A stretch of 64,000 bases of DNA, from contig DAOVZN010000001.1 of assembly GCA_030635055.1 (NCBI GenBank), forward strand, positions 18,837 to 82,836, given 5' to 3'. The notes beneath the pieces were generated by a model, which made no database searches, was not told the origin of the DNA, and saw nothing but the letters and a program-made list of their open reading frames with translations. The first letter of the stretch is position 1; the number at the start of each line of letters is the position of its first letter. This document shows, one piece after another, positions 44,223 to 63,848 of this stretch. This stretch comes from a bacterium (lineage in GTDB: Bacteria > Patescibacteriota > Minisyncoccia > Minisyncoccales > JAGLPU01). Made by a program: the position numbers and the translations under genes.

Positions 44223-46331
44223 ATGGCGGAAAGAAAATATTACCGCAAAATCTATCAAAAAAAGAAAAATAAGAAAATAAACTTAATTTTAAAGTTGTTG
44301 GTTTTTTGTTTTTTGTTTTTAGGATTTGCCTCTCTTTTGGTATTTTTTTACTATGCCAAAGACCTTCCTCGGCCAGAAGTATTCACTGAAAGACAATTTA
44401 TCCAATCAACTAAAATTTATGACCGGACAGGAGAAGTGTTGCTTTATGACATTCACGGAGAAGAAAGAAGGACTATAGTATCTTTAAACATTATCCCTAA
44501 GAGCCTGCAACAAGCAGTCATGGCGGCCGAAGACGCTAGATTTTACCAACATTTTGGAATAGATTTTAAAGGAGTAGGCAGAGCAATACTGGTTAATTTG
44601 CAAAGGAGAGATGTTTCTTCTTCTGTTGGAGCTTCAACCATCACGCAGCAGTTTATCCGCTGCTCTTTTTTGACAATGGAAAAAACCATAGAAAGAAAGA
44701 TAAAAGAACTCGTTTTAACAATAGAAATAGAAAGAAGGTATTCTAAGGACCAAATTCTGGAATGGTATTTAAATCAAGTTCCTCTAGGAAGCGTTTATGG
44801 AGTAGAGGCCGCCAGCAGGTCATTTTTTGATAAAAAAGTGCAAGATATTTCTTTAGCAGAATCAGCCATAATAGCTTCTTTAATTAAGGCTCCCAGTTAT
44901 CTTTTAGAAAATAAAGATAAACTTGTTATAAGAAAAGATTATGTTCTGGATAGAATGGTGGAAGAAAATTTTATCACGGCAGAAGAGGCGGAAACCGCTA
45001 AAAAAGAAGAAATAAAATTCGCCAAGGCTAAATCAATCCAAGCCCCTCATTTTACCCTCTATATTAAAAAATATCTAACAGAAAAATACGGGGAGAAGTT
45101 TTTAGAAGAGAAAGGATTGAAAATCTATACTTCCTTAGACTGGAACCTCCAACAGGAAGTAGAAAAAATAATAGAAGAAAGAGCAAAAATTAACGAGAAC
45201 TATGGAGCCTTTAATGCTTCTTTGGTTGCTCTTGACCCAAAAACCGGAGAAGTTTTAAGTATGGCCGGTTCAAAGGACTACTTTGCCGACTCTTATCCCG
45301 AAGGCTGCTCTGGTCCGGACTGCTTATTTGAACCGGATTTTAATGTGTCCATGATTGGGAAGAGACAGCCGGGATCAGCTTTCAAGCCTTTCGCTTACGC
45401 CACTGCTTTTAAAAAAGGATTTACCCCGGAAACAATTTTATGGGATGTAGAGACTAATTTCGGCATTTACGGCAACGAGTCCTATATCCCGCAAAACTAT
45501 AATGAAAAATTCCAAGGAGCCATAAGCTTAAGGGATGCTTTGGCTCAGTCCGTTAATGTTCCCGCAGTAAAAATGCTTTATTTGGCCGGACAAAAAGATA
45601 CACTAGAGACAGCTAAAAAACTTGGCATAACAACCTTAGAAAAAGACCCCTCTTATTACGGCCTATCTTTAGTTCTGGGAGGAGGAGAAGTCAAGCTGAT
45701 AGATATGGTTTCGGCTTACGGGGTATTCGCCACTGAAGGGCTGCAAATTCCTCCTGTGTTTATTTTAAAAATTGAAGACAGTCAAGGAAACATTATTGAA
45801 GAAAACAATAAAACTCTAAAGAGAGTTTTAGATAGACAAACAACAAAAAACATCAATGACATTCTTTCTGATAATCAAGCTCGCACACCAACTTTCGGAC
45901 CTAATTCCGCTCTACACTTTAATGATCGCCAGGTAGCGGGGAAAACCGGAACTACCCAAGAATACAAGGACGCATGGACAATAGGATACACTCCTTCAAT
46001 TGTGGTCGGAGTGTGGGTTGGAAATAATAATAATTCTCCGACAAAAAAGCCCGGTGTAGTTTTAGCCGGGCCCATCTTTCATAGAGTTATGGAAAAAGCT
46101 TTATTAGGGACTGAAAAAGAATACTTTAATGAGCCCGAAGTGATTATAACTTCTAAGCCGATTTTAAACGGAGAAGTAGAAGAATATGAACTGCCGGAAA
46201 CACCTCATTCCATTTTGTATTATGTTGATAAAAATAACCCCTTAGGAGAAATGCCTGTTGAGCCTGAATCAGATTCCCAATACTCAGCGTGGGAACAAGG
46301 GATCAAGGATTATTTTAAAGTTTCTGATTAA
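44223..46331 (+). CDS. class A penicillin-binding protein (glycosyltransferase + transpeptidase)
   Basis: N-terminal TM. GT51 motifs EDARFYQHFGID and ITQQ. Transpeptidase motifs SAFKP (SxxK), SVN (in LAQSVNV) and KTGT. Confidence 0.9.
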   Translation: MAERKYYRKIYQKKKNKKINLILKLLVFCFLFLGFASLLVFFYYAKDLPRPEVFTERQFIQSTKIYDRTGEVLLYDIHGEERRTIVSLNIIPKSLQQAVMAAEDARFYQHFGIDFKGVGRAILVNLQRRDVSSSVGASTITQQFIRCSFLTMEKTIERKIKELVLTIEIERRYSKDQILEWYLNQVPLGSVYGVEAASRSFFDKKVQDISLAESAIIASLIKAPSYLLENKDKLVIRKDYVLDRMVEENFITAEEAETAKKEEIKFAKAKSIQAPHFTLYIKKYLTEKYGEKFLEEKGLKIYTSLDWNLQQEVEKIIEERAKINENYGAFNASLVALDPKTGEVLSMAGSKDYFADSYPEGCSGPDCLFEPDFNVSMIGKRQPGSAFKPFAYATAFKKGFTPETILWDVETNFGIYGNESYIPQNYNEKFQGAISLRDALAQSVNVPAVKMLYLAGQKDTLETAKKLGITTLEKDPSYYGLSLVLGGGEVKLIDMVSAYGVFATEGLQIPPVFILKIEDSQGNIIEENNKTLKRVLDRQTTKNINDILSDNQARTPTFGPNSALHFNDRQVAGKTGTTQEYKDAWTIGYTPSIVVGVWVGNNNNSPTKKPGVVLAGPIFHRVMEKALLGTEKEYFNEPEVIITSKPILNGEVEEYELPETPHSILYYVDKNNPLGEMPVEPESDSQYSAWEQGIKDYFKVSD

Positions 46332-47458
46332 TTACCCTTAATCGGCATCACCACATAAAGATAACTCGTATCCCCTACCGGCTTTAATATCGCCGGCCCT
46401 TCTATTCCATTAATGCCGAAGATGACTTCGTCACTTTTTATATTTGTCAGTCCATCAAGTAAGAATTTAAAATTAAAGGAAGTCTCTGTATTTTTGCCTT
46501 CCGCTTTGACTAAAATTTCTGATTTGTTCTCTCCAATCTCCGGGGTTTGGGCAAAAAGCTCCATTTTATTCTTATTGACATTGACATTGATTTTGATTTC
46601 ATTGGTTTTCCCACTGAACAACGAAGTTGTTTTAATTTGGCTGATAAGCTCATCTCTTGAAACAACCACTTGCGTTTCATATTTTTGAGGAATAATTTCT
46701 TGATAATTAGGATATTTCCCCTCTATTAGACGAGACACAAGCTGAATTTGAGGCTGATTGCCTTCTGGAAAAGACAGTTCAAATAAAACCTGGCTAGATG
46801 ATAAATACATTTTTAATTTATCCTCTCTTTCAGAAGTAATATTAATAAGCTCGCGCGCTGTTCTTTGAGGAATAATAAAAGAAGTTTCTTTTTTTATATC
46901 CATTCCGTCTTTAAAATAAAGAGTTTTCTCGGCTAGTCTAAAACTATCTGTTGCCACGATCTTTAAAGCGTTTTTTTGTAAATTAAAATAAATTCCGGAT
47001 ATTTCGGGCTTAGTCTGGTTTAAAGAGCTGAATTCCACCACTTGAGATATTCCTTTATAAAAAGGGATACTGTTTATTTCTATAAAATCAGTAGTTTCAG
47101 TTTTAGGGATAATAGGAAAATCATCTGGGGACTGCCCTTTAATTTTCACATTATAATTATCGCAGTTTATATTTAAAACTTGATCTTTTTCTTCTAAAGT
47201 TATCTTCTTGTTTGGTAAGGAATTAACTAAACTTAAAATAAGCTTTGCCGGAACCGTTATCTTTCCTTCTTTTTCTGTTTTAGTTAAAGTCCAATAATTT
47301 ATTCCCACTTCTAAATCGGTAGTGGAAAGTTTTAAAAGATTCTTTTTAACAGAAATCAAAACATTATTTAAAATAGGCAATGTTAAGTTTTTTCCTGTAA
47401 TTCTTTCGACAATGTCTAATCCTCTTTTTAAATTTTCTTTTAATATAATTAAATTCAT
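46328..47458 (-). CDS. dnaN: DNA polymerase III subunit beta
   Basis: 376 aa with a three-domain clamp pattern, directly downstream of dnaA. Confidence 0.88.
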   Translation of the reverse strand: MNLIILKENLKRGLDIVERITGKNLTLPILNNVLISVKKNLLKLSTTDLEVGINYWTLTKTEKEGKITVPAKLILSLVNSLPNKKITLEEKDQVLNINCDNYNVKIKGQSPDDFPIIPKTETTDFIEINSIPFYKGISQVVEFSSLNQTKPEISGIYFNLQKNALKIVATDSFRLAEKTLYFKDGMDIKKETSFIIPQRTARELINITSEREDKLKMYLSSSQVLFELSFPEGNQPQIQLVSRLIEGKYPNYQEIIPQKYETQVVVSRDELISQIKTTSLFSGKTNEIKINVNVNKNKMELFAQTPEIGENKSEILVKAEGKNTETSFNFKFLLDGLTNIKSDEVIFGINGIEGPAILKPVGDTSYLYVVMPIKGN

Positions 47459-51279: not shown

Positions 51280-51699
51280 ATGTCTGAGGTGATTGAAATG
51301 GAAGGAAAGAAACATAGAATATTCCCACCGATATTTGTTGATAAAGAGAAGAGAATTGGCTTCGGGATTCTTGCTCTATTTTGTCTTGTGATAGTGGGAG
51401 CTTACGCTTTTGGAGGCGGTGGCGATGTTATCGCAGATAGCGTAGGTTGTTATGTGTGCGGCACATGGGTCCCCGTGAGAGAAGTAGGAGGAACAGTTAG
51501 CATAGAATTTAGTAGTGATGGCAGTTTCAACTACTTTGAAAACATGGAAGATGACTGGGCCAGGTTTTCCGCAGCCGGCACATGGGAACAGACAGGAAAC
51601 ACAATAACAGTTGAATATAGAGGACTGAAAGAAACATGTGTTTTAAAAGGAAGAGTCTTGCACGACGAAGATGGCATAGCATGGAAAAAGCTCCGTTAA
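51280..51699 (+). CDS. small membrane-anchored hypothetical protein
   Basis: 139 aa with one TM (IGFGILALFCLVIVGAYAF) and a Trp/Gly-rich C-terminal domain. Confidence 0.55.
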   Translation: MSEVIEMEGKKHRIFPPIFVDKEKRIGFGILALFCLVIVGAYAFGGGGDVIADSVGCYVCGTWVPVREVGGTVSIEFSSDGSFNYFENMEDDWARFSAAGTWEQTGNTITVEYRGLKETCVLKGRVLHDEDGIAWKKLR

Positions 51700-51703
51700 A
51701 AAA

Positions 51704-51740
51704 ATATTTCTGTCTTAATAGGCAGAAATTTTTTTATTTT
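51704..51740. terminator. bidirectional terminator hairpin between convergent genes
   Basis: ATTTCTGTC-TTAATA-GGCAGAAAT flanked by A-run and T-run. Confidence 0.5.
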
Positions 51741-53184
51741 AATATTTTACTTTAACCACTATTAGAGAAGAGCCTATGTCGTTCATGGTGTAGGTAAAGT
51801 TTTTTAGTTCTCCTTTGCGAAGAACCATACATTTACCCGAATAGTTGCTATCTTTATACAGGAAGGCTATATAGTTGCCGTCTGCGCTGATTTCTGCTGC
51901 AGAAATACCACTATCGGTCAAAAGACCGTCCCCTATCGGGTCATCAGGATCAGGAGCCAGCACTCCGTGTTCCTCCCATGTATGAAGCTGTAAATTAGCG
52001 TCTCCTTTGGCCACTGCTTTGCCAGCTAAGCTAAAAGTGTCGCCAAATTTAGTATCAGCAAATCCATAGTAGGTAAATGTGGCAAGATTAGGGACTATTG
52101 TCCCGCCGATACAGCCAAGCGGTGTCCATATGCCTCCAACACAGTAATTATGTTTTTCACAGTTATGCTCGCGGCATAACTTTATTCTCCCATCGTAATA
52201 AGGCTGAATGTTCAAATCAAGAAAAGTCATAGAAGAGGCGCCATAACCTACAGCGTTGTCGGTTAGATCCGGATCATCGTCAAGTATAATGTCGCATTCT
52301 CCTTCATAATGAAAATTCTTATGTAGAGCGACACGGAGATAAGAATTTAAGTCGTCTTTGAATTTAATAGATTTTACTTTATCGTTAAGATTTTCAGTAT
52401 AAAGATTATAGAGATCGGGTTGTTTCGGAAAAAATTTGCACTTGCCGTAATTTGTTTCTTCACAAAGATAAAGACCAGGTTCTCTTTTGTTAACTATTTT
52501 TATTGATTTGGGGGCAAAGCCGCAGAGAGCGGTTATGTCATCGTGATGTCTAGGGGGATTTCCGGATGCTGGGTCAATAGGATCAAGGAATTTTCTCTCT
52601 ATCCCTCCATAGTCTATCTCAGTATAAAAATAAACATCTATATCTTCCACGGAAACAGAATCATTGATTTTGACAGAAAGAGTATTGAAATCACTTAAGT
52701 TGTGCATGGATTGATCAAATCCATAGATACGATGGTCCCCCCCTAAATTTATTTCAGGGTAAAGTTCTATTGCTCCTGACATTTCTATCTTATCTAATCT
52801 TAAAATTGTTAGTTCCGGGTTAATGGTATTTAAAATCAAGAACGAAGAAAGTAGTATCGCCAAACCTATGACCGCTGAGGTTATTTGATCTCTGGCGTCG
52901 CTCATTTTTGCCGGATTACCGCCGGAAGTCATATGTTTGTATCCTCCTAAAATCAAAGCGCTAAAAGCTACTAAGCCGGCAATCATTAAAGCGAAACTGA
53001 AAATATACTCTATATAATCCGGCAGAAGGGTTTTGGTCGAAACAGGCACAGGCACTCCGCCAATTATAGGATAATCAACTTCCAAGTCTGTTTCGCTGAA
53101 ACAAAAACTACTAGGAGCAAGAGTTAAAAAAAAGAATAAAACAAGAATAAAGCCAATGATTTTTTTATGTTTAGTTATTTTCAT
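51739..53184 (-). CDS. pilin-like (VirB2/TrbC-topology) N-terminal module fused to a large extracellular domain with beta-gamma-crystallin-like repeats
   Basis: 481 aa. Signal peptide, DLEVDYP motif, TM hairpin (..FALMIAGLVAFSALILGG...GNPAKMSDARDQITSAVIGLAILLSSFLILNTINPEL), then repeated Y/F-x4-Y/F-x-G ... S modules such as IAFLYKDSNYSGKCMVLRKGELKNFTYTMNDIGSSLIVVKV. Confidence 0.6.
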   Translation of the reverse strand: MKITKHKKIIGFILVLFFFLTLAPSSFCFSETDLEVDYPIIGGVPVPVSTKTLLPDYIEYIFSFALMIAGLVAFSALILGGYKHMTSGGNPAKMSDARDQITSAVIGLAILLSSFLILNTINPELTILRLDKIEMSGAIELYPEINLGGDHRIYGFDQSMHNLSDFNTLSVKINDSVSVEDIDVYFYTEIDYGGIERKFLDPIDPASGNPPRHHDDITALCGFAPKSIKIVNKREPGLYLCEETNYGKCKFFPKQPDLYNLYTENLNDKVKSIKFKDDLNSYLRVALHKNFHYEGECDIILDDDPDLTDNAVGYGASSMTFLDLNIQPYYDGRIKLCREHNCEKHNYCVGGIWTPLGCIGGTIVPNLATFTYYGFADTKFGDTFSLAGKAVAKGDANLQLHTWEEHGVLAPDPDDPIGDGLLTDSGISAAEISADGNYIAFLYKDSNYSGKCMVLRKGELKNFTYTMNDIGSSLIVVKVKY

Positions 53185-53190
53185 ATATTT

Positions 53191-54336
53191 TTAATAAATT
53201 AGATCGCAGCAGAAATAATTAGGGGCCTTAGCCGGATCGGCCGCTTCTTCGCTGCACCTGGGTTTATCAATTTCTAAAAAGTACTTAATAATAGAACAGT
53301 TTAATGTGTCTTTTATAGTGAATATCTCACCTTCAACAACACAGTATCCATCTCCGGCGACAAGTTGCTTATAACATGTTAAAGGTGTAAAACACTGTCT
53401 TAATTCTTTTCTAGCCCCATCTAATTTTGCTGAAATTTGCGTAGGCGTAACCGATGTAGTCAGCGTCATAACATTTAAAAGATCACCGGTAATGTTTAAA
53501 TTATGGATTTGAATATTTGTATAAGAATTATTAATGTTAGTATAATTTGTAAGCGCGTTGCTATAGTAGCCAGTTATTGCGGCAATAGAGGCATCAATGT
53601 CTGTCATGGGGCAGGCGTTATCAGTGCCGTCCCAGCGAGCGCAGCTGGCCTTAGAACCGTCAAGGAGAGTAAAAATATCGCAATTGCAAGGATTCTCACA
53701 GTTAGGGCATTTATAGTATGGTTCGTCGCAGATCCAATCACAGGTCCATGGGAACACTGGTAAACAATCAAGGTGTCCAGAGAAACAGTCATCTGGGCAA
53801 TCATTTGTTGTGTCTATATCATTATTGTCACACATTTTACAACCATGGCGCTTTGGTGTCCCATCCGCATTAAAAACATCAGATTCCAAAAGATCAAATT
53901 CCCATATTTTAGTACAGTTGCATTTTCCGGGCAAACAAGCTCCTGAGCAATCCTCGCAATTATTCGGGCTTCCGTCTGTAAAACCGAGTATTTTATTAGC
54001 TTCTTTTCTCGCTGAATTAGTCGTTTTCGCGATATTCTCTATTAAGAGTATAGCATTATCAACTGCGGAAAACCCTTCGTCTTTAGCTAAAACGGCATTA
54101 TCATAAAGATCTTTGTATTTTATAAGCAGGTCATCGCCGTATTCTTTCGTTTCGTCAACCGCTTCTCCTATGCGAATTTCTGTGTGGCAATCCCATTGTT
54201 CCGTTTTTTCTTGTCCCTGGACAATCTCTTTTTCATTAAATGACAAGAAACAGGAGAGTAAAAGAGAAACCGTCAAAACTAAGAAAGTTTTTATGCCTAT
54301 TCTGTAGATTTTTTTATTTAATAAATAATATTTCAT
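53191..54336 (-). CDS. secreted cysteine-rich protein (27 Cys), unknown family
   Basis: 381 aa. N-terminal signal/anchor, a helical segment, then dense CxxC/CxC clusters (NNCEDCSGACLPGKCNC, YYKCPNCENPCNCD) and an Asn/Thr-rich stretch. Confidence 0.6.
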   Translation of the reverse strand: MKYYLLNKKIYRIGIKTFLVLTVSLLLSCFLSFNEKEIVQGQEKTEQWDCHTEIRIGEAVDETKEYGDDLLIKYKDLYDNAVLAKDEGFSAVDNAILLIENIAKTTNSARKEANKILGFTDGSPNNCEDCSGACLPGKCNCTKIWEFDLLESDVFNADGTPKRHGCKMCDNNDIDTTNDCPDDCFSGHLDCLPVFPWTCDWICDEPYYKCPNCENPCNCDIFTLLDGSKASCARWDGTDNACPMTDIDASIAAITGYYSNALTNYTNINNSYTNIQIHNLNITGDLLNVMTLTTSVTPTQISAKLDGARKELRQCFTPLTCYKQLVAGDGYCVVEGEIFTIKDTLNCSIIKYFLEIDKPRCSEEAADPAKAPNYFCCDLIY

Positions 54337-54342
54337 AGACTA

Positions 54343-55689
54343 TTATTCCACATAATAAAAAGTTGCCGGATCGCCTCCCGGTTCAATTTCTCCATCTCTA
54401 TATTCCTTTAATTCTATGTTTGTTTTTTCAGTTTCTAAAAAAGAATAATAACTCATTATAGAATTATAGGGATTTAATTTTATTATCATTTCAATTTCTT
54501 CCAGGCTGACCAAATCTTTTGTCAGGTTTTCTATTATTTCTTCCGGACTGCCGTAGTCTTGTTCAATTTCTTTTAATCCTGTGCGGTCAGCTTTTGAAAT
54601 CAGATCTTTGGCTTCCGTATCAAGTATAAACAAGGCGTTAATTTCTACTGAATTAGTGGTTTCAAATGCTTCAACAGTATTAGTATCGCTCTTGCTTAAA
54701 AAAGCGTCAATCACGCCGGCAAATAATTCAACCCTTTTTAATTCTTCTTCCACCACCGGTTTTTTGGCAGAGATATTGGCAATAATTTCAGGAATGCCAT
54801 CTATAATATTAAAAGGATCTCTTAGCTCATCCATTCTGGCTCTATCCGGGCAGGTGTCAGTAATAGGGCCGGTATTGCAGGCGCTGCAAGCAGTCATAGC
54901 GTGGCAGCCGTCATTGGTACAGTTATCGCACTTGTTGCCTCCAAATACCCAAAATATAGTGCAATCAGAACTGCAGTTGCTGCATTTACAATCAGCGGCA
55001 AGAGTTGCCAGTTCTATGGACTGGGCTTTTAAGAAGAGGCCAAGATTTTTTAATTTCAAAGACTCATCGTGCAAGACTTCCATTAATTTTTCTAATTTTT
55101 TGTTCGCTCTTTCAAGAGCGTCTCCGGTTTTTTCTAGTCTTTGCAGCCTGGCAGGGTTTAAAATTCCTTCGTAAGCTGAATAGGAGATGCTTAAAACAGA
55201 ATTTTTATTATTAATTAGCGTCCCTAAAGGAAATTCATAAACAGTAATCTTTGGTTCTATATTATAATCCTCGGGGAGAGGCAAAGCTTCAGGATCGTGT
55301 GTTAACGGGGCAAAGGAGAAAAATACCAAGTTAGGATTAATAGTAGATAAGAGGATATAAGAAGAAAGTAAAATTAGCAGTCCAACAATGCCGCAAATGA
55401 TTCGGTCCCTTGCGTCTCTATGAGAGGCTGGGTTTCCCCGGGAAGCTGTATATTGTGCTCCGGCTCTAACTATTACTCCTAAAGCAATAAGCCCGCAAGC
55501 AATGATGGCAAAATTAAAAATATATTTAATGTAGCTATGCAAGAAGGTTCTGGTTGATGTCGGGCTTTCCCCGCTGATTACAGGATAATCAACTTCTAAA
55601 TCTGTTTGGGAAAAAACAAAACCGCCTATAGACATCAGCAAGAGAGAAAGAACAAGAGCTATAATAAATGTTTTGGAATGTTTAATCAT
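54343..55689 (-). CDS. pilin-like paralog with helical stalk and Cys-knot extension
   Basis: 448 aa. The first ~125 aa align by eye with the 481-aa protein (DLEVDYP..., GNPASHRDARDRIICGIVGLLILLSSYILLSTINPNL). A 10-Cys cluster follows: CKCSNCSSDCTIFWVFGGNKCDNCTNDGCHAMTACSACNTGPITDTC. Confidence 0.6.
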   Translation of the reverse strand: MIKHSKTFIIALVLSLLLMSIGGFVFSQTDLEVDYPVISGESPTSTRTFLHSYIKYIFNFAIIACGLIALGVIVRAGAQYTASRGNPASHRDARDRIICGIVGLLILLSSYILLSTINPNLVFFSFAPLTHDPEALPLPEDYNIEPKITVYEFPLGTLINNKNSVLSISYSAYEGILNPARLQRLEKTGDALERANKKLEKLMEVLHDESLKLKNLGLFLKAQSIELATLAADCKCSNCSSDCTIFWVFGGNKCDNCTNDGCHAMTACSACNTGPITDTCPDRARMDELRDPFNIIDGIPEIIANISAKKPVVEEELKRVELFAGVIDAFLSKSDTNTVEAFETTNSVEINALFILDTEAKDLISKADRTGLKEIEQDYGSPEEIIENLTKDLVSLEEIEMIIKLNPYNSIMSYYSFLETEKTNIELKEYRDGEIEPGGDPATFYYVE

Positions 55690-56245
55690 TTTTTAACTCG
55701 CTTACTACAGTTAAGCTCCAGAAAGGAAAAACTTGGATAATAGGGACTAAGGTGCCGACAAAAGACCTAAATAATTTTAGAGCTATCTTACCGCCACTTC
55801 TCGCCGCTGTTTTTACTGCCGTTTTTGTAACTACTCTTTTTGTCGTTGTTTTTTTTATTCTTGTCGCTGCTGCTCTTTCCGCCTCCTGTGCCATATCTTT
55901 TTCCGTGGCCTTGGCCACTCCTTTTTCTGATTCTTTGGCGTCAGCCTTAGTGGCAGCTCTGTCTTTTTTAGTTAAATTTGTATCCGGTAGGGTTATCTCC
56001 GGTTCTTCTATCGTATCTATTTCTTCTTCCTCCTCTTCCGTTGATGCTTTTTTACCGCTTGCGCGAGAATACATCCATGAGCCGACTATTATTAAACAGA
56101 AAAAGTCTAAGATTAAACAAGAGATAATAGCTGCCAGTGCGCCTATTATCGTAGGAAGCAAGAGTGTTGTGACAATGCTTACTAAGTCGCAAGCTCCGCC
56201 CACTATTAACATTGCTACTCCTTCCGGTCTGGTAAAACTAGACAT
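55682..56245 (-). CDS. membrane protein with two N-terminal TM helices, charged low-complexity linker and C-terminal hydrophobic helix
   Basis: 187 aa. 8-nt overlap with the downstream pilin-like gene and a 2-nt gap after the VirB4 gene. The linker is EEEEEEIDTIEEPE followed by a Lys/Thr/Ala-rich stretch. Confidence 0.55.
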   Translation of the reverse strand: MSSFTRPEGVAMLIVGGACDLVSIVTTLLLPTIIGALAAIISCLILDFFCLIIVGSWMYSRASGKKASTEEEEEEIDTIEEPEITLPDTNLTKKDRAATKADAKESEKGVAKATEKDMAQEAERAAATRIKKTTTKRVVTKTAVKTAARSGGKIALKLFRSFVGTLVPIIQVFPFWSLTVVSELKND

Positions 56246-56247
56246 AT

Positions 56248-58029
56248 TTATTCTGCTTGTTTAGCTCTTTTTATTTTCAGAATTTCTTCGGGAGAGGTGG
56301 TGATTATTTGGTCCTCGGCATAAGAGGCGACAACTTTAACTAAAACATGCTTTTGTCCGGCGAAAAATAATCCCTCCCCTATCGCTGCCTCTAAGAGCAT
56401 GTATTTTTCTTCGTCAGTCAAATTAAAAGTCTTTTGGACGATGTCTATGCTTGCCGGGCTTTGTTTCATCAGAAATTGCAAAGAGGAATTAGTGATAATG
56501 GGACGGCCATAGCTTGATTTCATAAAGTCAGCCACATCCTGGGTAATAGTGGTAAGTCCCAACCAGTATTTCCGTCCCCTTTTCGCAATGCCGAAAAGGA
56601 AAGAAGCTCCATCTTCCGTTTTCATCAGCCACCATGCTTCGTCGATAACCAGAATTCTTTTCTTTAGCTCTGAGCGAACCTTGTTCCAGATGTATCTCAT
56701 GATGATAAACATTGCCATGGGCCTGAGTTCGTCTTCCATGTCCCTTATGCCAAAAGCAACCAAAGAAGAATCCATAGAGATGTTGGTGGGCTGGTTAAAG
56801 AAATTTGAAAAAGTTCCTTCAGTGAATTTAGCCATCCGTTTTAATAAAGAGTCAGTCCCATCCATTCCTTCCAGCACTGACTGCAAGTCTTCCATTAAAG
56901 GGATATTATCCGGCCAGGCGTCTGGATCGCTATCTATAGTAATATCATGGGAGGCATAAGTTTCAGTCAAAGCCTGGTCCATAATACTGTCTTCAGCCGC
57001 TGACAGACCGCCAAGCATAATTCTTAATAACCCCACTAAGTTGATAATATTGGAGCGGAGGATATCTTCCGGCTTTTCTCCTTCCCTGGGGCAAGGCAGG
57101 TCAAAAGGATTGATATGATTATCTGATGATAAAGAAATATTAAAGAAAGATCCTCCTACTGCGTCAGCCAAAAACTGATATTCGTTTTCCGGGTCAAGAA
57201 TAATGCAATCCACTCCCAACATTAAAGAGCGCAACAGTTCCAGCTTTACCATGTATGATTTACCGGAACCGGATTTGGCAAAGATTACACAGTTGGCATT
57301 TTCTAAACTAAATCTGTCAAACAAAATTAAAGAATTGTTATGTTGGTTTACCCCGTAAAGGATTCCTTCATTCGAGCTTAAATCAAAGGAAATAAAAGGG
57401 AAAACGCTGGATAAAGGGCCGGTGTTCATCGGTGTATAGACCTGAAGTTCATCCAAACCATAAGGCGCAGAAGAAGTAAATCCCTGTTTTTGCTGGTAAA
57501 GAGCGGGTTTGATATAGATTAAGCGTGATTCCAGAATTGAACGAAGCTCGGTTTCAGTGCTTATTAATTCTTTTTCGGTATCAGCGTAAATAGTCAGATA
57601 TATGCCAAGATTAAACATTCTTTCCTGAGCGGTTTGTAACTGATCTCTTAAAGTTTCTAAGTCTTGATGCGCAGTTTCCAAAACCGGATCGCGAACCAAT
57701 CCTTTCTCTTCTTTCTCCATAATCTCGGCTTGAACTTCGGTTACTCTTTTTCTTAAATCCTTTAAGGTTCTTTCGGTTTCGATAGGATAAACAAAAAAGG
57801 AAATATCCATTGGCGTATCCAGATTGATTATTGGAGAAAACCAGCCTGTTGTCAGATATCTGGGATAAGAAAAAATGAAAAAGCTTTTAGTGAGCCTTTC
57901 CCCTACTTTTGAATAGCTTTGAGCAATTTCAATAAAAGAAGGAGCGATAATATCAACAGCTTTAAGAGTGTCTATCTCAAAAATTCTTTCAGGGACTCCT
58001 TCCTTCTTTTTTTTAAAAAATGGGAACAT
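56248..58029 (-). CDS. virB4: VirB4-family type IV secretion ATPase (C-terminal 593-aa part)
   Basis: Walker A FAKSGSGKSY and Walker B ILVIDEAWWLM. The N-terminal segment SYSKVGERLTKSFFIFSYPRYLTTGWFSPI resembles the middle region of Gram-positive VirB4 proteins (Tn916 Orf16 / PrgJ type). Confidence 0.85.
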   Translation of the reverse strand: MFPFFKKKKEGVPERIFEIDTLKAVDIIAPSFIEIAQSYSKVGERLTKSFFIFSYPRYLTTGWFSPIINLDTPMDISFFVYPIETERTLKDLRKRVTEVQAEIMEKEEKGLVRDPVLETAHQDLETLRDQLQTAQERMFNLGIYLTIYADTEKELISTETELRSILESRLIYIKPALYQQKQGFTSSAPYGLDELQVYTPMNTGPLSSVFPFISFDLSSNEGILYGVNQHNNSLILFDRFSLENANCVIFAKSGSGKSYMVKLELLRSLMLGVDCIILDPENEYQFLADAVGGSFFNISLSSDNHINPFDLPCPREGEKPEDILRSNIINLVGLLRIMLGGLSAAEDSIMDQALTETYASHDITIDSDPDAWPDNIPLMEDLQSVLEGMDGTDSLLKRMAKFTEGTFSNFFNQPTNISMDSSLVAFGIRDMEDELRPMAMFIIMRYIWNKVRSELKKRILVIDEAWWLMKTEDGASFLFGIAKRGRKYWLGLTTITQDVADFMKSSYGRPIITNSSLQFLMKQSPASIDIVQKTFNLTDEEKYMLLEAAIGEGLFFAGQKHVLVKVVASYAEDQIITTSPEEILKIKRAKQAE

Positions 58030-58044
58030 ATTTAAAATAAATTA

Positions 58045-58701
58045 TTATGTTGTTAGTTCTGGCGGGATTTCAGGGTAATAACCAATTTCCGCTTGCTTGG
58101 GGTGGTGCAGAGCCCAAAACAGTTCAATTAATTCGCCGGTAGTTAAAGGAACGGCTTTCAGCCCGCATCTTCTTAATCCTAAAACAACGAACTCCATTCT
58201 TTGCCAAAGCTGAGTTTTGCATCTTTGGAATATCTCTTCGGTCAAATTGGGCGCTTTCTGCTTTTTTTTGGATTTTATGGAACTAGTAGCTAGGACAGAA
58301 GTGCTGAAAGGAACCACTAAAAAGAAAGTCTTTGACATAATGGTGCCTGTTTTCACTAATCCTTGAATAAACTCTATATAACCGGTAGTTTGCATTTTAA
58401 GAAGTTCGTTTTGCTGCTTTGCTTCTATCTCTTTTAATTTTTCAATATAGCCGGTAATGTTAAGTTTTCTTGATTGAACCAGGATTTGGCAGCCGAAATC
58501 CATAGAATTAAGAAAATTCTGGAATTGATAAATGGTGGCAGTTTGTTCTTCTTCTGACTTCAAAGCGAAATTTAAAGAAGAAACCATTAAAACTCCCCTA
58601 AAGGATTTGTTTTTTAAAATGATAACTCCTTCCCTTATTTGTTTTATTTTTAAAAAGTCTTGAGTTGCTGATTTAGCCATGTTGTGTTCTGTTAACTTCA
58701 A
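58045..58701 (-). CDS. VirB4 N-terminal-domain-like protein (separate ORF, same frame as the ATPase)
   Basis: 218 aa. IREGVIILKNKSFRGVLMVSSLNFALKSEEEQTATIYQFQNFLNSMDFGCQILVQSRK resembles the extreme N-terminus of Gram-positive VirB4 proteins. It ends in TAA TAA, 15 nt before the ATPase ATG and in the same frame. Confidence 0.5.
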   Translation of the reverse strand: MKLTEHNMAKSATQDFLKIKQIREGVIILKNKSFRGVLMVSSLNFALKSEEEQTATIYQFQNFLNSMDFGCQILVQSRKLNITGYIEKLKEIEAKQQNELLKMQTTGYIEFIQGLVKTGTIMSKTFFLVVPFSTSVLATSSIKSKKKQKAPNLTEEIFQRCKTQLWQRMEFVVLGLRRCGLKAVPLTTGELIELFWALHHPKQAEIGYYPEIPPELTT

Positions 58702-59101
58702 TTTGAGTGAATAATTTTTTTAATTTGCTTCTGCCGGCAATTTCCGGAAGAATGTATTGTTTTTTCTTTATATCTTCTTCGCTCTTTTTAGGCATTTTTT
58801 TGATTACAAATTTAGGCGGCATAACTTTTCTTTTCCAAAGAAATATTTTAGAAGAAAGAGCAAAAATTAAAAAGTTTCTGAAAACTATCTCTAAGCTTTG
58901 TCCGTTGATTTTTAAAAAAGTGAGGGAACCCACTGCGCCGACAAGAGTGACGGAAGCCATTAAGAAAAAGAAAGGAGGCAGAGAAACTTTAAAAAAATAG
59001 CAAGCAGCTGCCGTCAGAACAATAATGATAAACTGGCGGAAAGTAAGCGGACCTACTATTTTTGGTTTTCGGTCAATAAATTGTGGAACCTGAAATCGCA
59101 T
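58673..59101 (-). CDS. PrgI/VirB3-like small membrane protein
   Basis: 142 aa. MRFQVPQFIDRKPKIVGPLTFRQFIIIV followed by two TM helices, positioned immediately upstream of VirB4 as in Gram-positive T4SS loci. Confidence 0.55.
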   Translation of the reverse strand: MRFQVPQFIDRKPKIVGPLTFRQFIIIVLTAAACYFFKVSLPPFFFLMASVTLVGAVGSLTFLKINGQSLEIVFRNFLIFALSSKIFLWKRKVMPPKFVIKKMPKKSEEDIKKKQYILPEIAGRSKLKKLFTQIEVNRTQHG

Positions 59102-59113
59102 ATGAATTTAAGC

Positions 59114-59485
59114 TTATTCAATTGATTCTCTATAAGTATCTTTTATTGGAGGAGAAGAAGGCGTTTCTGTTTTGTATAAAGAGGCCAAACTTTTTTCCAC
59201 GGGACTGAAAACAGTTTGTTTAATTTTCAAAGCAATTTTTTCAGCGGTTTCCGCTTCTATCCCTGTTTTCTCTATAGTTTCCTGAAATTTATCCGGAGGC
59301 AAAAGACCTGTTAAGACGTCTTCAATGACTTGAGCGATTTTGGAAATTCTATCGGTTTTAATTCCATTATCAGTGCAAATGTTATAGACAGCATCAGCTG
59401 TTTTTTCTGAGAAAATCACTTCTTTTAGTTCTTTAGAGAGGTCTTTGTGATCTTTTTCTTTTGTCAGAGAATCAGGTGTTTCCAT
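59114..59485 (-). CDS. small acidic hypothetical protein (first gene of the cluster operon)
   Basis: 123 aa, helical by composition, with no TM and no recognised family. Confidence 0.5.
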   Translation of the reverse strand: METPDSLTKEKDHKDLSKELKEVIFSEKTADAVYNICTDNGIKTDRISKIAQVIEDVLTGLLPPDKFQETIEKTGIEAETAEKIALKIKQTVFSPVEKSLASLYKTETPSSPPIKDTYRESIE

Positions 59486-59645
59486 AATAAATTTATAAAT
59501 TCTTCTTACACTTATTATTTTACTATATATTTAATCAACAGGCAATGTTAGCAAATTTGATTTTTTAAAGAAGTTGACAGATTTAGAGAATTGTGTTATT
59601 GATATAATCAAACCAAAATGCACATTAAAATATAAATAAATACAG

Positions 59646-60791
59646 GTGATAAGAATGATAGGATTTCTAATAGGATTAGTAACAACTATAGCAACGGCGG
59701 TAGCAATATTGGTATTAGCGGCAGTGGCAGGCTTTCTTATAGTCTATTTCTATTTGGCTCCGAGAAACTATTTTTTTACTTTTGTAAAAGAAGGTTCAGC
59801 TAAAGCCATTATGAGAGCCGGTAAATTTGAAAAGATTCTTATCCAATGGGAAGGTCGTGGGTTAACTGAAAACGGCGATGTAAGTTGGTTCGAAGAAGAC
59901 AAGAGTTTTCTCAGGCGCTTGTTCGGTGGCCTTTGGTATTATGGATTTTGGCCGCTGCACGATGTCTATATCTATAAATTTGACTGGACTGGGATAAAAG
60001 AAAATGGAGAACCAAATCCTCACCAGGGGAAAACGCTTGATTACATCTTAGTAAAAGAAGATGTTTATCGGGTAGAGATTAAAGATGCTGAGGACAAAGA
60101 TTTGCTTCATTTATTAGTGGAAGTAGTTATGCCTATAAGAATTGTTAACCCGCGGAAGGCGCTATTTGATGTGGAGAATTGGTTGGAGGCAGTGATTGCG
60201 CTAGTGGCGCCTGCAGTACGAGATGCAATTACCCAAGACACTTATAAAAACCACATTAGAAACCCAGAGTCATTAGGGGAAAAAATATTTAGTCTTTTAA
60301 AAAAGCAGATAAAAAGATTTGAAAAAGACTATGGTGTAAAAATTCTTGATATAGGTATAAAGAATATAGATCCTCCTGAAGAATATCGGGAGGCGAGCAT
60401 TAAAGAATATCTTGCCGAACAAGAGAAAAAAAGAATTAAAATACTGGCAGAAGCGCAAAAACAAAAGTTGATAACTGAAGCCGAAGGAGAAAGACGAAGA
60501 ATAGAAAAGGTATACGGGCAGACTGACAAAATGGGTTATATCGGTCAATTAAAAGCGATATTAGAATCAATGGAAAAAACAGGAATGGCTGGTGTCTACG
60601 CTGTGCCAGGGCTTAAGGAATTTATAGGAGAAGCCGTTGGTAAACCCACAGAAAAGATAACTCCTGAGGATATTGCAATTTTTAGAAAAGTGGCTGAAGA
60701 AGAAATTGCAAAATCAAAAAAACCTAAGTCTGCAAAAAAGAAAAAACCTGCCAAAAAACGCAAGGAGGTTACTAGAAAAAAGAAAAATTGA
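59646..60791 (+). CDS. SPFH/band 7 domain protein with Lys-rich C-terminal tail
   Basis: 381 aa. N-terminal TM, an SPFH-like core, a coiled coil (EQEKKRIKILAEAQKQKLITEAEGERRRIE), and the tail KSKKPKSAKKKKPAKKRKEVTRKKKN. Confidence 0.75.
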   Translation: MIRMIGFLIGLVTTIATAVAILVLAAVAGFLIVYFYLAPRNYFFTFVKEGSAKAIMRAGKFEKILIQWEGRGLTENGDVSWFEEDKSFLRRLFGGLWYYGFWPLHDVYIYKFDWTGIKENGEPNPHQGKTLDYILVKEDVYRVEIKDAEDKDLLHLLVEVVMPIRIVNPRKALFDVENWLEAVIALVAPAVRDAITQDTYKNHIRNPESLGEKIFSLLKKQIKRFEKDYGVKILDIGIKNIDPPEEYREASIKEYLAEQEKKRIKILAEAQKQKLITEAEGERRRIEKVYGQTDKMGYIGQLKAILESMEKTGMAGVYAVPGLKEFIGEAVGKPTEKITPEDIAIFRKVAEEEIAKSKKPKSAKKKKPAKKRKEVTRKKKN

Positions 60792-60794
60792 GAG

Positions 60795-60826
60795 AAAAAA
60801 AGAGGCTGAAATTCAGCCTCTTTTTC
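60795..60826. terminator. bidirectional terminator between convergent genes
   Basis: AAAAAA-AGAGGCTGA-AAT-TCAGCCTCT-TTTT. Confidence 0.6.
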
Positions 60827-63026
60827 ATGAGTCAAACCCGGCTCCTCCTTGTCCTCTAGGAGGTTTTCCCTTTTTTTTAGAAGGCTTTATCTCTCTTGGT
60901 CCGGTCACTCCTCGTGGTTCTTCAGGTGGCTGTAGCTTTTTCTTTATCCAGCCCGTTAGTTTTTTTCGTTTCTTTGTTTTCTTTATATCTTCTTCGCTTT
61001 CTTTTTCCATTACATCCATTTGGCCTAATGTCTCTTTCCATCCTTCGTTCGTTAGATCCCTATCTTCTGTAACTTTTTCAAATTTTCCAAGTATTTTCTC
61101 CTGCCACTCTTTTTGTTCCTGTTCGCTTTTTTGAGGAACATCAATGTTTTTTATTTCTTTCAAAGTTTCCAAGAAGTTTTCTTTGCCTTGAGGATTATTG
61201 CGGCTCATAGATTTGTAAAATCCTTTGCCTAGATACTGCATGAACGCCGTGACAAAAGCCTTATCCTTAAAGACATCAGCGCCCATGTCTTTTATGTCTT
61301 CAACTCTTACTTTGTCTCTTGCCACTGCCTCTACTGCTTCGTCTTCTGTCATTTTTCTCTTTGTCATTTTACCAGTCTTAGTATCTCTCTTTTCTATATA
61401 TTCATAAGCTCCTATGTTTCCAGCCGCCAATCTTGCCAATCGAGGATTATTTCTTAAAATAGGAGTTAATTCACCTCCTTTATTAGCATCTACTAATTTT
61501 GGAGTTATTAATTGCTTGAATCTTTTATCTTTTATAACCTGATCATCTGTACTGAGCTTATATTGTTTTTTAGCTGCATCAAACAAGTCCTGCACATCGC
61601 CGTTTTTGGCAAGTTGTTTAAGGGCGGCAGTGCCGCGTATTTCTGACAAATCTTCGGTCATCAGTCCATGAGCCAAAGAGCCGGAATTTCTGTAAGAAAG
61701 CTCTTTTTGGGCGGTTTCAATCGACCCTTTGTGCTCGGCATATTTTCTAAGCCCTTCCGGGACAGCCCACCTGGCTATATTATGTTTTTCCCATTGTCTT
61801 GTTACGCTACCTGCTATTTCTCGAGTTTTTAACTTTCTTTCAATTGGAGCGGCAATTCTCTCTCTGACCACTCTTGTGCCTCCTTTTCTCATCCATCCTA
61901 AGGCTTTATTTCCATATTTTTTGCCGCCGCTTATAACCCCTCCGGCGCCCATTGGCGTGGTTTTAATTGCAGTAAGAAAACCGATGAATAACAATACCAT
62001 ACAAACAATATAAGGCATTATTGTGTCTAGATAACCACTGCTGCCGGCTAAGATTTTGCCGATGGAAATAACATTAGTGTCCACCATATATCCTTTTAGC
62101 TGGTTGGACAAGAACAGAAAAAAAGCTAAAGTTATACCGATAATATTCCATTGTAAAAATTGGTTCCACCATTCTTCCCAATGTAATATTCCCGGGAATA
62201 GTTTTTTTGTTAAACCGCTTTCTTTAAAAATATAGGTAAAGAATGCTATAGGCGACAGAATAACCAGAATCCATAACATAACATATCGAGTGATGAATAA
62301 AGCAACAAAGAGGAAATAAATAAAAGCAGTCATCAAACTTATGAAAATATGAATGATGGTTTTAAACATAAAACTAAAAGAAAGAATTTCAGATATAGCG
62401 CTGAAGCCCATTAAGCTTGATGTTATTTCTTTATATTGTTTGGTAAATTCATCTAAAACAGATCCCCAACCGGTGACTCCGTCTAGAAAATAGTTCATTG
62501 CAATATTGGAAGCGTCAATAATAACTCCACATATCACCGGAGTGAAATTAATTAACAACAGGATAATAAATAAACGAGGCAAAGTTTTCTGCCACTGGTA
62601 TTCTTGGATTCTCAAAGCGGTTCCCAGCCCAATAAAAGCTAAAATAATAATAAAGCCCATATTGACCAAGTTTCTAACAATGTTCCATCCTTGAATCACA
62701 AATTCGTTGGAAGTGAAAGAAACATTAATAAAATAGGGACTGGTCACTATCGTTAAAAGCCCCGCCGCCGCCGCCAAAAGAACATTGGCAAGAAGTAAAA
62801 GGAATTGCAAAACTACATCTTTGAGAAGAAGAAAGGATATGCTAATACCAAAAAGTGCGTGAGCGGAAAAAATCGGCAATGTTATTCCTAAAACTGAAAA
62901 CAATAAAACAGCCATCCAACGCTGTTTTTTATTTTTTTGAAAATATGAAACTTTATCTATAAATTTTCTGAGAAATTGTTTCATAGAAGCAAGAGGTTTG
63001 TAATCATCTATATTATTATAACACAA
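60825..63026 (-). CDS. large polytopic membrane protein, VirB6/TcpH(Orf15)-like candidate, with about 330-aa cytoplasmic C-terminal region
   Basis: 733 aa with about 8-9 TM helices in the first 400 aa, then a charged soluble region and a basic Pro/Gly tail. The call rests on architecture and genomic context only. The start may be the internal MKQFLRKF at 62984. Confidence 0.45.
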   Translation of the reverse strand: MCYNNIDDYKPLASMKQFLRKFIDKVSYFQKNKKQRWMAVLLFSVLGITLPIFSAHALFGISISFLLLKDVVLQFLLLLANVLLAAAAGLLTIVTSPYFINVSFTSNEFVIQGWNIVRNLVNMGFIIILAFIGLGTALRIQEYQWQKTLPRLFIILLLINFTPVICGVIIDASNIAMNYFLDGVTGWGSVLDEFTKQYKEITSSLMGFSAISEILSFSFMFKTIIHIFISLMTAFIYFLFVALFITRYVMLWILVILSPIAFFTYIFKESGLTKKLFPGILHWEEWWNQFLQWNIIGITLAFFLFLSNQLKGYMVDTNVISIGKILAGSSGYLDTIMPYIVCMVLLFIGFLTAIKTTPMGAGGVISGGKKYGNKALGWMRKGGTRVVRERIAAPIERKLKTREIAGSVTRQWEKHNIARWAVPEGLRKYAEHKGSIETAQKELSYRNSGSLAHGLMTEDLSEIRGTAALKQLAKNGDVQDLFDAAKKQYKLSTDDQVIKDKRFKQLITPKLVDANKGGELTPILRNNPRLARLAAGNIGAYEYIEKRDTKTGKMTKRKMTEDEAVEAVARDKVRVEDIKDMGADVFKDKAFVTAFMQYLGKGFYKSMSRNNPQGKENFLETLKEIKNIDVPQKSEQEQKEWQEKILGKFEKVTEDRDLTNEGWKETLGQMDVMEKESEEDIKKTKKRKKLTGWIKKKLQPPEEPRGVTGPREIKPSKKKGKPPRGQGGAGFDS

Positions 63027-63032
63027 CTTTTT

Positions 63033-63848
63033 TTATAATAACACATTTTTAAAATTTACTAAATTTTTCCAGTCGTCGAGGCTTAAAGTTTCCGCTCTTT
63101 GGTTCGGCTTAATATTATTTTCCGATAGCCATGATGCGGTTTTTTCTTTTGGCAGATTTAATCCCCCGCTTAGATTGTTGACCAGTTGTTTTCTGGGGTG
63201 GGAAAATCCAGCCTTAACAATTTTAAAGAATTCTTTGGGGAGTTTGGGCGTGAAGCAAGGAATTATTTCAATGATGGCGGAGTTTACTTTAGGCATCGGA
63301 TAGAATGACCCACGGGAGACATAACTCATAATTTTGGGCTGGCTATAGAACTGTACGGAAACAGCCAATAAATTCATTCGCGGAGGTCTAGAGCAAATTC
63401 TTTGCGCCACTTCTTTTTGCATCATCAAAACCATTGATTCGGGCCGATTTTCCGCTTCTAAAAACTTTCTTATAACAGGAGAGGTAAGGTAAAAAGGCAG
63501 ATTGGCAACCACTTTATAGTTGGAAACCAAAGATTGTAGATTTAATTCAAGGATGTCCTCCCTTACAACTTTAACATTTTTTGTTTCTTCCAGGGTTTCT
63601 TTTAAAATTTCTATCATCTCTCTGCTTTTTTCTACGGCAATAACCTGTCTTGCTTTTTTTGCCAGCTCCTGGGTGATAACTCCAATTCCCGGTCCGACCT
63701 CTAAAACAATGTCTTTTTGCGTTGTTTTTGCTGTTATTTTTTCCACCACTCCTCTGTTAACTAAAAAATTCTGCCCGAAATATTTTATGGGAGCAGTTTC
63801 ATATTTTTTAAGCAGTCCAACAATGTCTTTTTTTGAACATAAGTCCAT
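63033..63848 (-). CDS. rsmA: 16S rRNA (adenine1518/1519-N6)-dimethyltransferase RsmA/KsgA
   Basis: KYFGQNFLVN, SAM motif VLEVGPGIGVIT, NLPFY. Confidence 0.9.
   Translation of the reverse strand: MDLCSKKDIVGLLKKYETAPIKYFGQNFLVNRGVVEKITAKTTQKDIVLEVGPGIGVITQELAKKARQVIAVEKSREMIEILKETLEETKNVKVVREDILELNLQSLVSNYKVVANLPFYLTSPVIRKFLEAENRPESMVLMMQKEVAQRICSRPPRMNLLAVSVQFYSQPKIMSYVSRGSFYPMPKVNSAIIEIIPCFTPKLPKEFFKIVKAGFSHPRKQLVNNLSGGLNLPKEKTASWLSENNIKPNQRAETLSLDDWKNLVNFKNVLL

Follow-up and report, generated by a model that had tools for sequence, protein, structure and literature searches.

What might a protein of 381 amino acids (aa) and 27 cysteines be doing between two pilin-like genes of a bacterium of the order Minisyncoccales? 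The question is raised by one gene in a 64,000-nucleotide stretch of contig DAOVZN010000001.1 (hereafter the window, meaning the whole stretch at its full length), from a Patescibacteriota assembly (GCA_030635055.1) of 768 kb in 25 contigs that is 89.6% complete. Patescibacteria make up much of bacterial diversity, and the majority appear to spend their lives attached to other cells; we know of no host-contact component of their type IV secretion system (T4SS) identified so far. Comparison with relatives shows that the 381-aa protein corresponds to the genetically detached distal module of what is predicted to be a pilin-anchored, two-module ectodomain of the Patescibacteria T4SS locus. Our preferred reading goes further, and we regard it as moderately probable: the protein would be an exported subunit of a pilin-anchored T4SS surface structure, the second copy of a duplicated module of base, stalk and head, docked on the 448-aa product of the upstream gene and with its head contacting a partner or host cell.

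Fused and split relatives of the 381-residue protein

Searches with the single sequence left the impression of a tiny family, returning 4 proteins in a 5.8-billion set and 5, the protein itself included, in a 1.84-billion representative set. Profile searches of genomes corrected that impression. A profile from seven close homologues (A2), run on a sample of 401 genomes within the order, had matches in 26, many of the matches falling in open frames of 650-1050 aa. A 22-row alignment made from the A2 matches (A3, which omits the divergent or truncated L016 and L018 and an incomplete same-genus copy, L002/L003) matched 158 of the 401 genomes (134 of 329 high-quality genomes, 101 of 246 genera); a protein search with A3 found the same 4 proteins only. 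The module, which we call the C-half, is rare outside the order. At class level an A3-type module was present in 12 of 401 genomes, of which ten belong to the order; of the two outside it, one had a weak match with stop codons. At phylum level a 43-row profile (A5) matched 4 of 401, three in the order. The family profile finds the 381-aa protein at E 1e-74, and the protein carries the motifs seen in A2, A3 and A5 in collinear order: C..EIPIGE, a helix, NC.DC..C, a variable Cys block, C.G.PCP, a helix, KL..SR..L..C and an N[YF][FY]CC end.

The long frames of the relatives proved to be one recurring three-part protein. Its first part is a signal peptide with a two-helix pilin hairpin that ends in INPxL; its second, the first module or N-half, runs EIPlG, helices, C.C..C...C.GDPCP, helices, K.CS and DPATFYC; and its third, the second module or C-half, runs C..EIPIGE, helices, NC.DC..C...C.G.PCP, helix and KL..SR..L..C, with N[YF][FY]CC at the very end. 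In the window this series is divided between two genes, the 448-aa protein consisting of the hairpin and first module and ending ...GGDPATFYYVE, and the 381-aa protein consisting of the second module behind a signal peptide of its own. The 381-aa gene starts 6 nt past the end of the 448-aa gene (GAA TAA TAG TCT ATG), and fused relatives read through at this place (...DPATFYC, about 15-20 aa, then C..EIPIGE). Because the modules of fused relatives are joined by that short linker and the window junction falls there, the break lies exactly within the inter-module linker. A same-genus metagenome-assembled genome has the same split, and contigs from four public sequencing runs, all from a single study and three of which may be where this DNA came from, match the window letter for letter over the 381-aa gene and its upstream junction; the runs listed with this DNA include no RNA run.

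The surroundings of the module were surveyed over about ±9.5 kb at the 40 best-scoring matches, from 40 distinct genomes outside the window's genus, and were annotated by phmmer with the window proteins and with hidden Markov models of both modules. The C-half stood in one frame with a pilin and N-half at 15 of the 40 loci and as a separate ORF (open reading frame) at 25. Among these 25 split loci a pilin-bearing ORF lay directly upstream in 23 and a pilin-like gene downstream in 23, both being present in 22. At E up to 0.001 the T4SS_pilin model (PF18895) matched five of eight fused proteins, two of which also passed its cut-off. A first description of the gene, made from the letters of the window and hereafter the sequence-only reading, had treated it as a component of the surrounding apparatus, and its conservation together with the cluster bears this out: VirB4 was found within about 10 kb at 36 of the 40 loci, and 22 of 25 split forms sit between two pilin-like genes. 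Of the four loci without VirB4, three are contigs of 5.6-8.2 kb, and the remaining one belongs to a genome with several matches, where it forms a second pilin block. A quick maximum-likelihood tree was made of 43 C-halves, leaving out L157 (a near-copy of L153), L183 (with an incomplete C-terminus) and L187 (below the E 1e-15 threshold). It requires the fused or split state to have changed three times, and well-supported branches force at least two of these changes. All six members of the window's clade are split (Shimodaira-Hasegawa-like approximate likelihood ratio test 97).

The two modules also appear to be related to each other. BLASTP aligned the 381-aa and 448-aa proteins over the Cys block at only E 0.051, which is not convincing alone. 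Comparison by hhalign of A3 (22 rows) with an 11-row N-half alignment (A4) lent support to the earlier guess of a module in common with the 448-aa neighbour, giving Prob 95.4 and E 1.8e-8 over 19 columns in local mode and Prob 97.2 and E 1.1e-10 in global mode, values that overstate the case for a reason given with the counter-evidence below. The alignment is collinear over about 250 columns in global mode or with a relaxed threshold, and it pairs EIPIGE with EIPlG, the openings of the two Cys blocks, C.G.PCP with C.GDPCP, a helix ending in a conserved Cys, and NYFCC with ATFYC. In 20 column shuffles local E values were 0.38-1 in every case and global values 0.24-0.99 in 19. We take tandem duplication to be the probable, not proven, origin of the N-half and C-half, mainly because five motifs are held in collinear order.

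Export, conserved cysteines and a variable head

The ORF at 53191..54336 on the reverse strand opens with ATG and encodes 381 aa. Its 27 cysteines are at positions 29, 50, 127, 130, 134, 139, 141, 166, 169, 180, 184, 191, 199, 203, 210, 213, 217, 219, 232, 242, 315, 321, 332, 347, 361, 376 and 377, the first within the N-terminal hydrophobic segment and the other 26 downstream of it, and they make up 7.1% of residues, against a median of 0.77% in the 49 window frames of at least 150 aa and 2.8% in the next highest frame. Both the count and the unusual density had been put forward in the sequence-only reading, as one Cys in a signal or anchor and 26 in the mature part, and translation agrees. 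The motif strings that it cited (NNCEDCSGACLPGKCNC, GCKMCDNNDIDTTNDCPDDC, WTCDWICDEPYYKCPNCENPCNCD, CNCTKIWEF and YYSNALTNYTNINNSYTNIQIHNLNIT) are all present in the translation, and CTIFWVF is present in the 448-aa neighbour. It had recognised no family, and scans of the protein against Pfam and NCBIfam likewise gave no family match, including none to PF18895 at E up to 0.1. By its sequence the protein is not itself a pilin, having no PF18895 match and a single hydrophobic segment, at the N-terminus.

A segment of this kind was found by a crude window rule in 25 of 25 split-form homologues, and G41 and Q42 are invariant in all seven close homologues. From this we infer that the protein is exported by the Sec route and cleaved at a conserved VxG/Q site. 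A reading of C29 as a lipoprotein cysteine was rejected because its LLSC context is not kept in homologues. Many split C-halves (loci L149-L188) carry a recurrent [FL][FLY]YN directly after the signal segment (LFYNKN, FLYNG, FFYNQ), the window counterpart being FLSFNE.

Eighteen Cys columns are invariant among the seven close homologues, and C376/C377 are present in all six that extend to the C-terminus. Across the 43-sequence alignment, C130 and C134 occur in 43 of 43 rows, C232, C315 and C376 in 42, C217 in 41, C347 and C377 in 40, and C242 in 39; the C-terminal set C347, C361, C376 and C377 is kept in 33-42. The possibility that such cysteine content is a compositional accident had been raised beforehand, and since the columns are conserved across homologues (39-43 of 43 for the main ones) the content is not accidental. 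Other residues conserved among the close homologues are I54, I56 and G57 in the base and I268, I275, L305, R309 and C315 in the descending stalk.

Structure prediction by AlphaFold2 (AF2) with seven sequences was too poor to use, with a predicted local distance difference test score (pLDDT) of 53.7. With the 43-row alignment of the mature part, pLDDT rose to 74.5 and the predicted template modelling score was 0.53. In mature numbering (add 44 for the full-length protein) the model has a strand at 3-10 and a 65-residue helix at 12-76, with block pLDDT of 81-92 falling to 71 at the distal end of the stalk, then helices at 200-246 (47 residues) and 254-269 (16 residues) with pLDDT of 83-92, and finally a small alpha/beta domain running to a C-terminal strand, with block pLDDT of 81-87 and one block of 62. 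The predicted architecture is thus a base, a long antiparallel helical stalk and a distal Cys-rich head. The Asn/Thr/Tyr-rich stretch noted in the sequence-only reading is present, and not as a separate low-complexity region, since the model places it within the descending stalk helix. The head is the variable part. Its length ranges over 31-126 aa (median 67) with 6-21 Cys among the 43 sequences, that of the window having 122 aa and 18 Cys and belonging to a clade with some of the largest heads. Among close homologues 8-39 reference positions are gapped in the head as compared with 0-5 in other mature regions, except for 14 where the truncated L002 ends early.

Weighing a role at the cell surface

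If the preferred reading of an exported, pilin-anchored subunit is right, the chain in which, among relatives, both module copies follow a VirB2-like (T4SS_pilin) membrane hairpin would have been cut in the inter-module linker in this genus, the distal module gaining its own signal peptide. After Sec export and cleavage at VQG/Q the 381-aa protein would dock on the outer part of the 448-aa pilin-like protein, its paralogue; docking on the upstream module is suggested because recurrent fusion implies pairing. The docked pair would rebuild the two-module ectodomain, held on the cell surface or on a pilus by the pilin hairpin, whose topology, read from sequence by the positive-inside rule, would place the N-half outside the cell. 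The conserved base cysteines and dense head cysteines would stabilise the extracellular fold through disulfides formed via membrane-anchored CPHC thioredoxin-fold proteins or, less likely, through metal. The variable head, standing about 7-10 nm from the base on its helical stalk, would contact the surface of a partner or host cell, and would supply the adhesin or receptor-binding component not found in surveys of Patescibacteria T4SS. A broader proposal, which we put forward tentatively and as possible rather than probable, is that the module represents an undescribed order-wide family of pilin-anchored receptor-binding proteins, the "missing adhesin" of these T4SS, in which two paralogous stalk-head units on a VirB2-like hairpin bear indel-rich, Cys-stabilised heads that set host choice, and recurrent gene fission and fusion would allow lineages to swap or retune the distal unit without changing the anchor.

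A protein encoded in a T4SS operon that is lineage-specific and fast-evolving could also be a secreted effector or toxin passed to the host by the T4SS, with no structural role. T4SS substrates are normally taken from the cytoplasm, whereas this protein has a Sec signal peptide; in 15 of 40 relatives the module follows a membrane hairpin in the same covalent chain; and neither Pfam nor NCBIfam showed an enzymatic or toxin domain. An effector is very improbable on these grounds, and it was the signal peptide together with the hairpin fusion that led us to reject it.

Several observations tell against the exported-subunit reading or some part of it. As to the duplication, one of the 20 shuffles gave a spurious global E of 2.6e-23, and a reversed-profile control still scored E ~3e-6 (Prob 76-88), so that part of the hhalign score reflects the shared layout of helix, Cys-rich block and helix, and the numbers overstate the case. 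The head (mature residues 77-199) is poorly modelled, mostly at low confidence, with block pLDDT of 41-78. Fold searches with Foldseek and VIA-align gave only generic helical hairpins below the informative level and no adhesin-like fold. Foldseek reached at best E 0.85 against the PDB and E 0.15 against BFVD, with nothing at E up to 0.001; a sequence profile search of the PDB reached E 0.33, to coiled coils; the ESM Atlas gave no usable match; and VIA-align against 48,161 chains listed no matches other than antiparallel coiled-coil hairpins (the dynein stalk 8i3j_A, at Z 10.1, and also prefoldin, SMC arms and LXG complexes), the informative level for helical proteins being about Z 13. Of the profile and structure searches that had been proposed as a way forward, then, the former defined a family and the latter yielded generic hairpins only. 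The module was found within 9 kb at only 7 of 80 VirB4-anchored loci drawn across the class with VirB4 as the search query, the remainder having mostly pilins with other extensions or short pilins, and it is therefore a lineage-restricted kind of pilin cargo and not a core T4SS part. Finally, three points bear on disulfides. A scan of the genome, at its 89.6% completeness and with positive controls, found nothing with models for VKOR, DsbB, DSBA and Thioredoxin_4; Cys number per ectodomain was even in 23 and odd in 15 of 38, with heuristic boundaries; and public runs with this DNA are labelled cold seep metagenome, a setting in which stable extracellular disulfides are less obvious.

At three of the VirB4-anchored loci (L092, L095 and L103) VirB4 is followed by a gene for a giant pilin-anchored protein, 1676-2264 aa long and with 46-66 Cys. 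These are another form of Cys-rich pilin cargo.

The scan for oxidative-folding models, a parity that is not clearly even and the cold seep label would all suit a rival with the same architecture and location in which the Cys clusters bind metal (Zn or Fe/S), the head being a series of metal knuckles able to persist where the habitat is reducing and sulfidic, as would the many CxxC, CxC and CxxxC pairs in the head. Given the cold seep label metal coordination therefore stays in play. We consider it rather unlikely nonetheless. The protein has only four His in all, and 22 A3 members scanned against Pfam at E up to 0.01 gave nothing beyond two chance-level matches and no zinc-ribbon or other metal-binding family. 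Some Cys columns co-occur in pairs and not in fours (C321/C332 in the same 6 rows, C180/C184 in 12 and 11 rows, and C141/C213 also), a weak point as the rows are phylogenetically related. The genome encodes, in addition, two exported candidates with a CPHC thioredoxin fold.

The first candidate, on contig C24 (L023:1363-2127, reverse strand), has 255 aa, a membrane anchor at its N-terminus and a thioredoxin fold bearing the CPHC motif; it scored 23.0 bits with the Thioredoxin model PF00085 against a cut-off of 23.5, had as its best PDB match the DsbA-type 4k2d_A (E 2.2e-5) and is a candidate MdbA-like oxidase. The second, on contig C8 (L024:550-1704, reverse strand), combines within 385 aa a signal peptide, a thioredoxin-like domain bearing the CPHC motif and a polytopic membrane domain with Cys pairs. 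It matches no Pfam family and has weak GRX-, TrbB- and TraF-like NCBIfam matches (E 2.4e-4 to 0.04), and may be an undescribed fused exported thiol oxidoreductase. In all, PF00085 picked out three frames in the genome. Adjoining the CPHC-membrane fusion gene on contig C8 (L022:1273-1809, reverse strand) is a cytoplasmic thioredoxin (E 1.2e-26) fused to a domain like the ferredoxin-thioredoxin-reductase catalytic chain (E 2.7e-14). The earlier idea of looking for a DsbA- or VKOR-like system thus had a divided outcome, with nothing from the four dedicated models and two exported candidates from the CPHC fold. According to the part of one report used here, genomes of the candidate phyla radiation (CPR) are enriched in MdbA-like exported oxidoreductases, often adjoining VKOR (bioRxiv 10.1101/335083). 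A disulfide-forming route in this genome, not established, is plausible because of the two exported CPHC candidates and the reported CPR enrichment.

The secretion locus and its known counterparts

The gene lies in a cluster of predicted T4SS genes on the reverse strand, which are listed with the parts of the 381-aa protein in the table below. The start of the cluster, at 51739, lies some 2.7 kb away from dnaA (DnaA 47656-48996, DnaN 46328-47458). Both flanking genes had been described as pilin-like, and PF18895 concurs, with E 1.2e-7 (32.2 bits, above the cut-off of 26.6) for the 481-aa protein and E 7.1e-4 (20 bits, below it) for the 448-aa protein, the latter also matching an NCBIfam pilin-like integrative and conjugative element (ICE) protein at E 0.0035. 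In the context loci, phmmer relatives of the 187-aa membrane protein occupy the same position in 17 of 40, and relatives of the 123-aa protein stand upstream of PrgI in many. No relaxase matched among the ORFs scanned at 51280-63848, within which no search aimed at relaxases was made.

Features of the 381-residue protein and of the surrounding gene cluster, in window coordinates
Feature	Position	Strand	Basis
Gene for the 381-aa, 27-Cys exported protein, C-half module	53191..54336	-	ORF, Cys count, homologues
Sec-type signal peptide, residues 1-41: basic n-region and hydrophobic TFLVLTVSLLLSCFLSF, likely cleavage VQG/Q	54214..54336	-	sequence; cleavage inferred
Base strand (C50-HTEIRIGEAVDE, family motif C..EIPIGE), then ascending stalk helix, residues 45-121	53974..54204	-	AF2 model
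Cys-rich head, residues 122-243, 18 Cys; opens NC.DC..C, ends C.C..C....PCP	53608..53973	-	alignment, AF2
Descending stalk helices, residues 244-314, with Asn/Thr/Tyr-rich stretch and motif KL..(S/A)R..L..C	53395..53607	-	AF2
Small alpha/beta C-terminal subdomain, residues 315-381, ending N-Y-F-C-C; forms the base together with the N-terminal strand	53194..53394	-	AF2
Junction ...FYYVE TAA TAG TCT ATG between the 448-aa and 381-aa genes	54337..54345	-	sequence; contigs of public runs identical
448-aa pilin-like protein: signal peptide and VirB2-like two-helix hairpin (to ~121); N-half module 118-448 (EFPLG, helices, CKCSNC...TDTCPD, helices, DPATFYY)	54343..55689	-	T4SS_pilin, A4, hhalign
481-aa second pilin-like protein with a different, beta/gamma-crystallin-like outer domain	51739..53184	-	Pfam T4SS_pilin E 1.2e-7, Crystall E 0.0011
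187-aa small membrane protein, between VirB4 and the pilin-like genes	55682..56245	-	ORF
VirB4-like ATPase, 593 aa	56248..58029	-	Pfam TraG P-loop E 1.2e-22, AAA_10 E 4.9e-13
218-aa protein resembling TrsD and the VirB4 N-terminal region	58045..58701	-	NCBIfam VirB4_plasma E 5.1e-9, TrsD E 3.6e-4
PrgI (VirB3-like) protein, 142 aa	58673..59101	-	Pfam PrgI E 9.5e-9, above cut-off
First gene of the cluster, conserved 123-aa protein of no known family	59114..59485	-	ORF

Some genes at the borders of the cluster may be recorded. At its end a 139-aa membrane-anchored protein with a weak lipocalin-like match (E 0.0021) is encoded convergently at 51280-51699 on the forward strand. On the other side a 733-aa ORF without a Pfam family (60825-63026, reverse strand) lies between an SPFH/Band-7 gene (59646-60791, forward strand) and a KsgA-type ribosomal RNA dimethylase gene (63033-63848, reverse strand).

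A survey of 3,035 Patescibacteria genomes describes a VirB4/TrsD/PrgI/VirB6/VirB2-like locus, near dnaA in some lineages (Quinonero-Coronel et al. 2025, PMC12102498); it reports having detected no PrgB-type adhesins in Patescibacteria, and it cites a chromosomal T4SS as essential in the one experimentally tested case. Judged by predicted gene content (VirB4, PrgI, TrsD-like and VirB2-like pilins) and by its position near dnaA, the window locus matches that of the Patescibacteria chromosomal T4SS. The passages of PMC12102498 used here mention no Cys-rich duplicated module, fused or split forms or stalk-head architecture, the word cysteine occurring once in the main text in an unrelated context. 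In full-text literature searches nothing was found tying cysteine-rich proteins to Patescibacteria type IV secretion or to Parcubacteria pilins.

T4SS_pilin matches are not confined to the cluster. Of seven in the genome five lie outside it (C11:17900-19977, C18:89689-89850 and C23:2929-3066), three being arrayed on contig C11 as frames of 157, 458 and 195 aa, and the matches on other contigs include short frames of 96-214 aa, which may be the major fibre subunits. With short pilins encoded elsewhere, it is more likely that the long pilin-anchored proteins of the operon serve as specialised subunits of the surface or tip than that they form the bulk fibre. The short frames are also in keeping with a different role for the 381-aa protein, that of a minor pilus subunit or assembly factor, VirB5-like, which nucleates or caps a fibre of short pilins and is not a host-binding adhesin; the predicted helical bundle with an appendage and the position of the gene inside the operon's pilin block would fit as well. 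Such a role is improbable in our view. There is no match to a VirB5/TraC family in Pfam or NCBIfam, and for a conserved assembly factor neither a head ranging over 31-126 aa nor absence from most VirB4 loci (the module being carried by 7 of 80) would be expected.

The findings have several consequences. An orphan 27-Cys ORF now belongs to a defined family, a probably duplicated stalk-head module tied covalently or genetically to T4SS pilin-like anchors, and its presence in about 40% of sampled genomes of one order makes it a concrete candidate for the host-contact part. The module definition could enter family databases, and the natural occurrence of split and fused pairs predicts a protein-protein interaction. 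A further question is how proteins with 20-50 extracellular cysteines are kept stable in organisms in which no DsbB or VKOR can be recognised.

Among known systems, the predicted design of two long antiparallel helices bearing a distal domain is that of the dynein stalk with its microtubule-binding domain (8i3j_A; Z 10.1, root mean square deviation 9.2 over 168 residues), although at a Z below the informative level of about 13 this is a common arrangement and not evidence of relatedness. Disulfide-bonded pilins of Actinobacteria that depend on MdbA and VKOR are likewise exported and pilus-associated, and rely for folding on a membrane-anchored thioredoxin-fold oxidase, for which the present genome has a membrane-anchored CPHC candidate; VKOR is part of that system whereas none was found here, and the disulfides of the 381-aa protein are only proposed. 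The VirB5/TraC minor pilins resemble it in outline, as exported, mostly helical accessory proteins with an appendage, encoded beside a pilin. They are thought to sit on the pilus and mediate contact, and VirB5 proteins are not known to be Cys-rich; they have no sequence match to the 381-aa protein, and no VirB5 structure was among the top fold matches listed. PrgB-type adhesins of Gram-positive conjugation have the role proposed here, cell-cell contact for a monoderm-type T4SS, but there is no homology and the architecture is wholly different, PrgB being anchored via the cell wall and the 381-aa protein, as we propose, via a pilin hairpin. The VirB2-like pilin arrays of Patescibacteria T4SS (PMC12102498, PF18895) have the same type of locus, with PrgI, TrsD-like and VirB4 genes followed by pilin-like genes, near dnaA. 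Within such an array the 381-aa gene is a non-pilin gene, having neither the hairpin nor a PF18895 match. The C-half module is a new domain family inside a known kind of system, and the feature is real and conserved.

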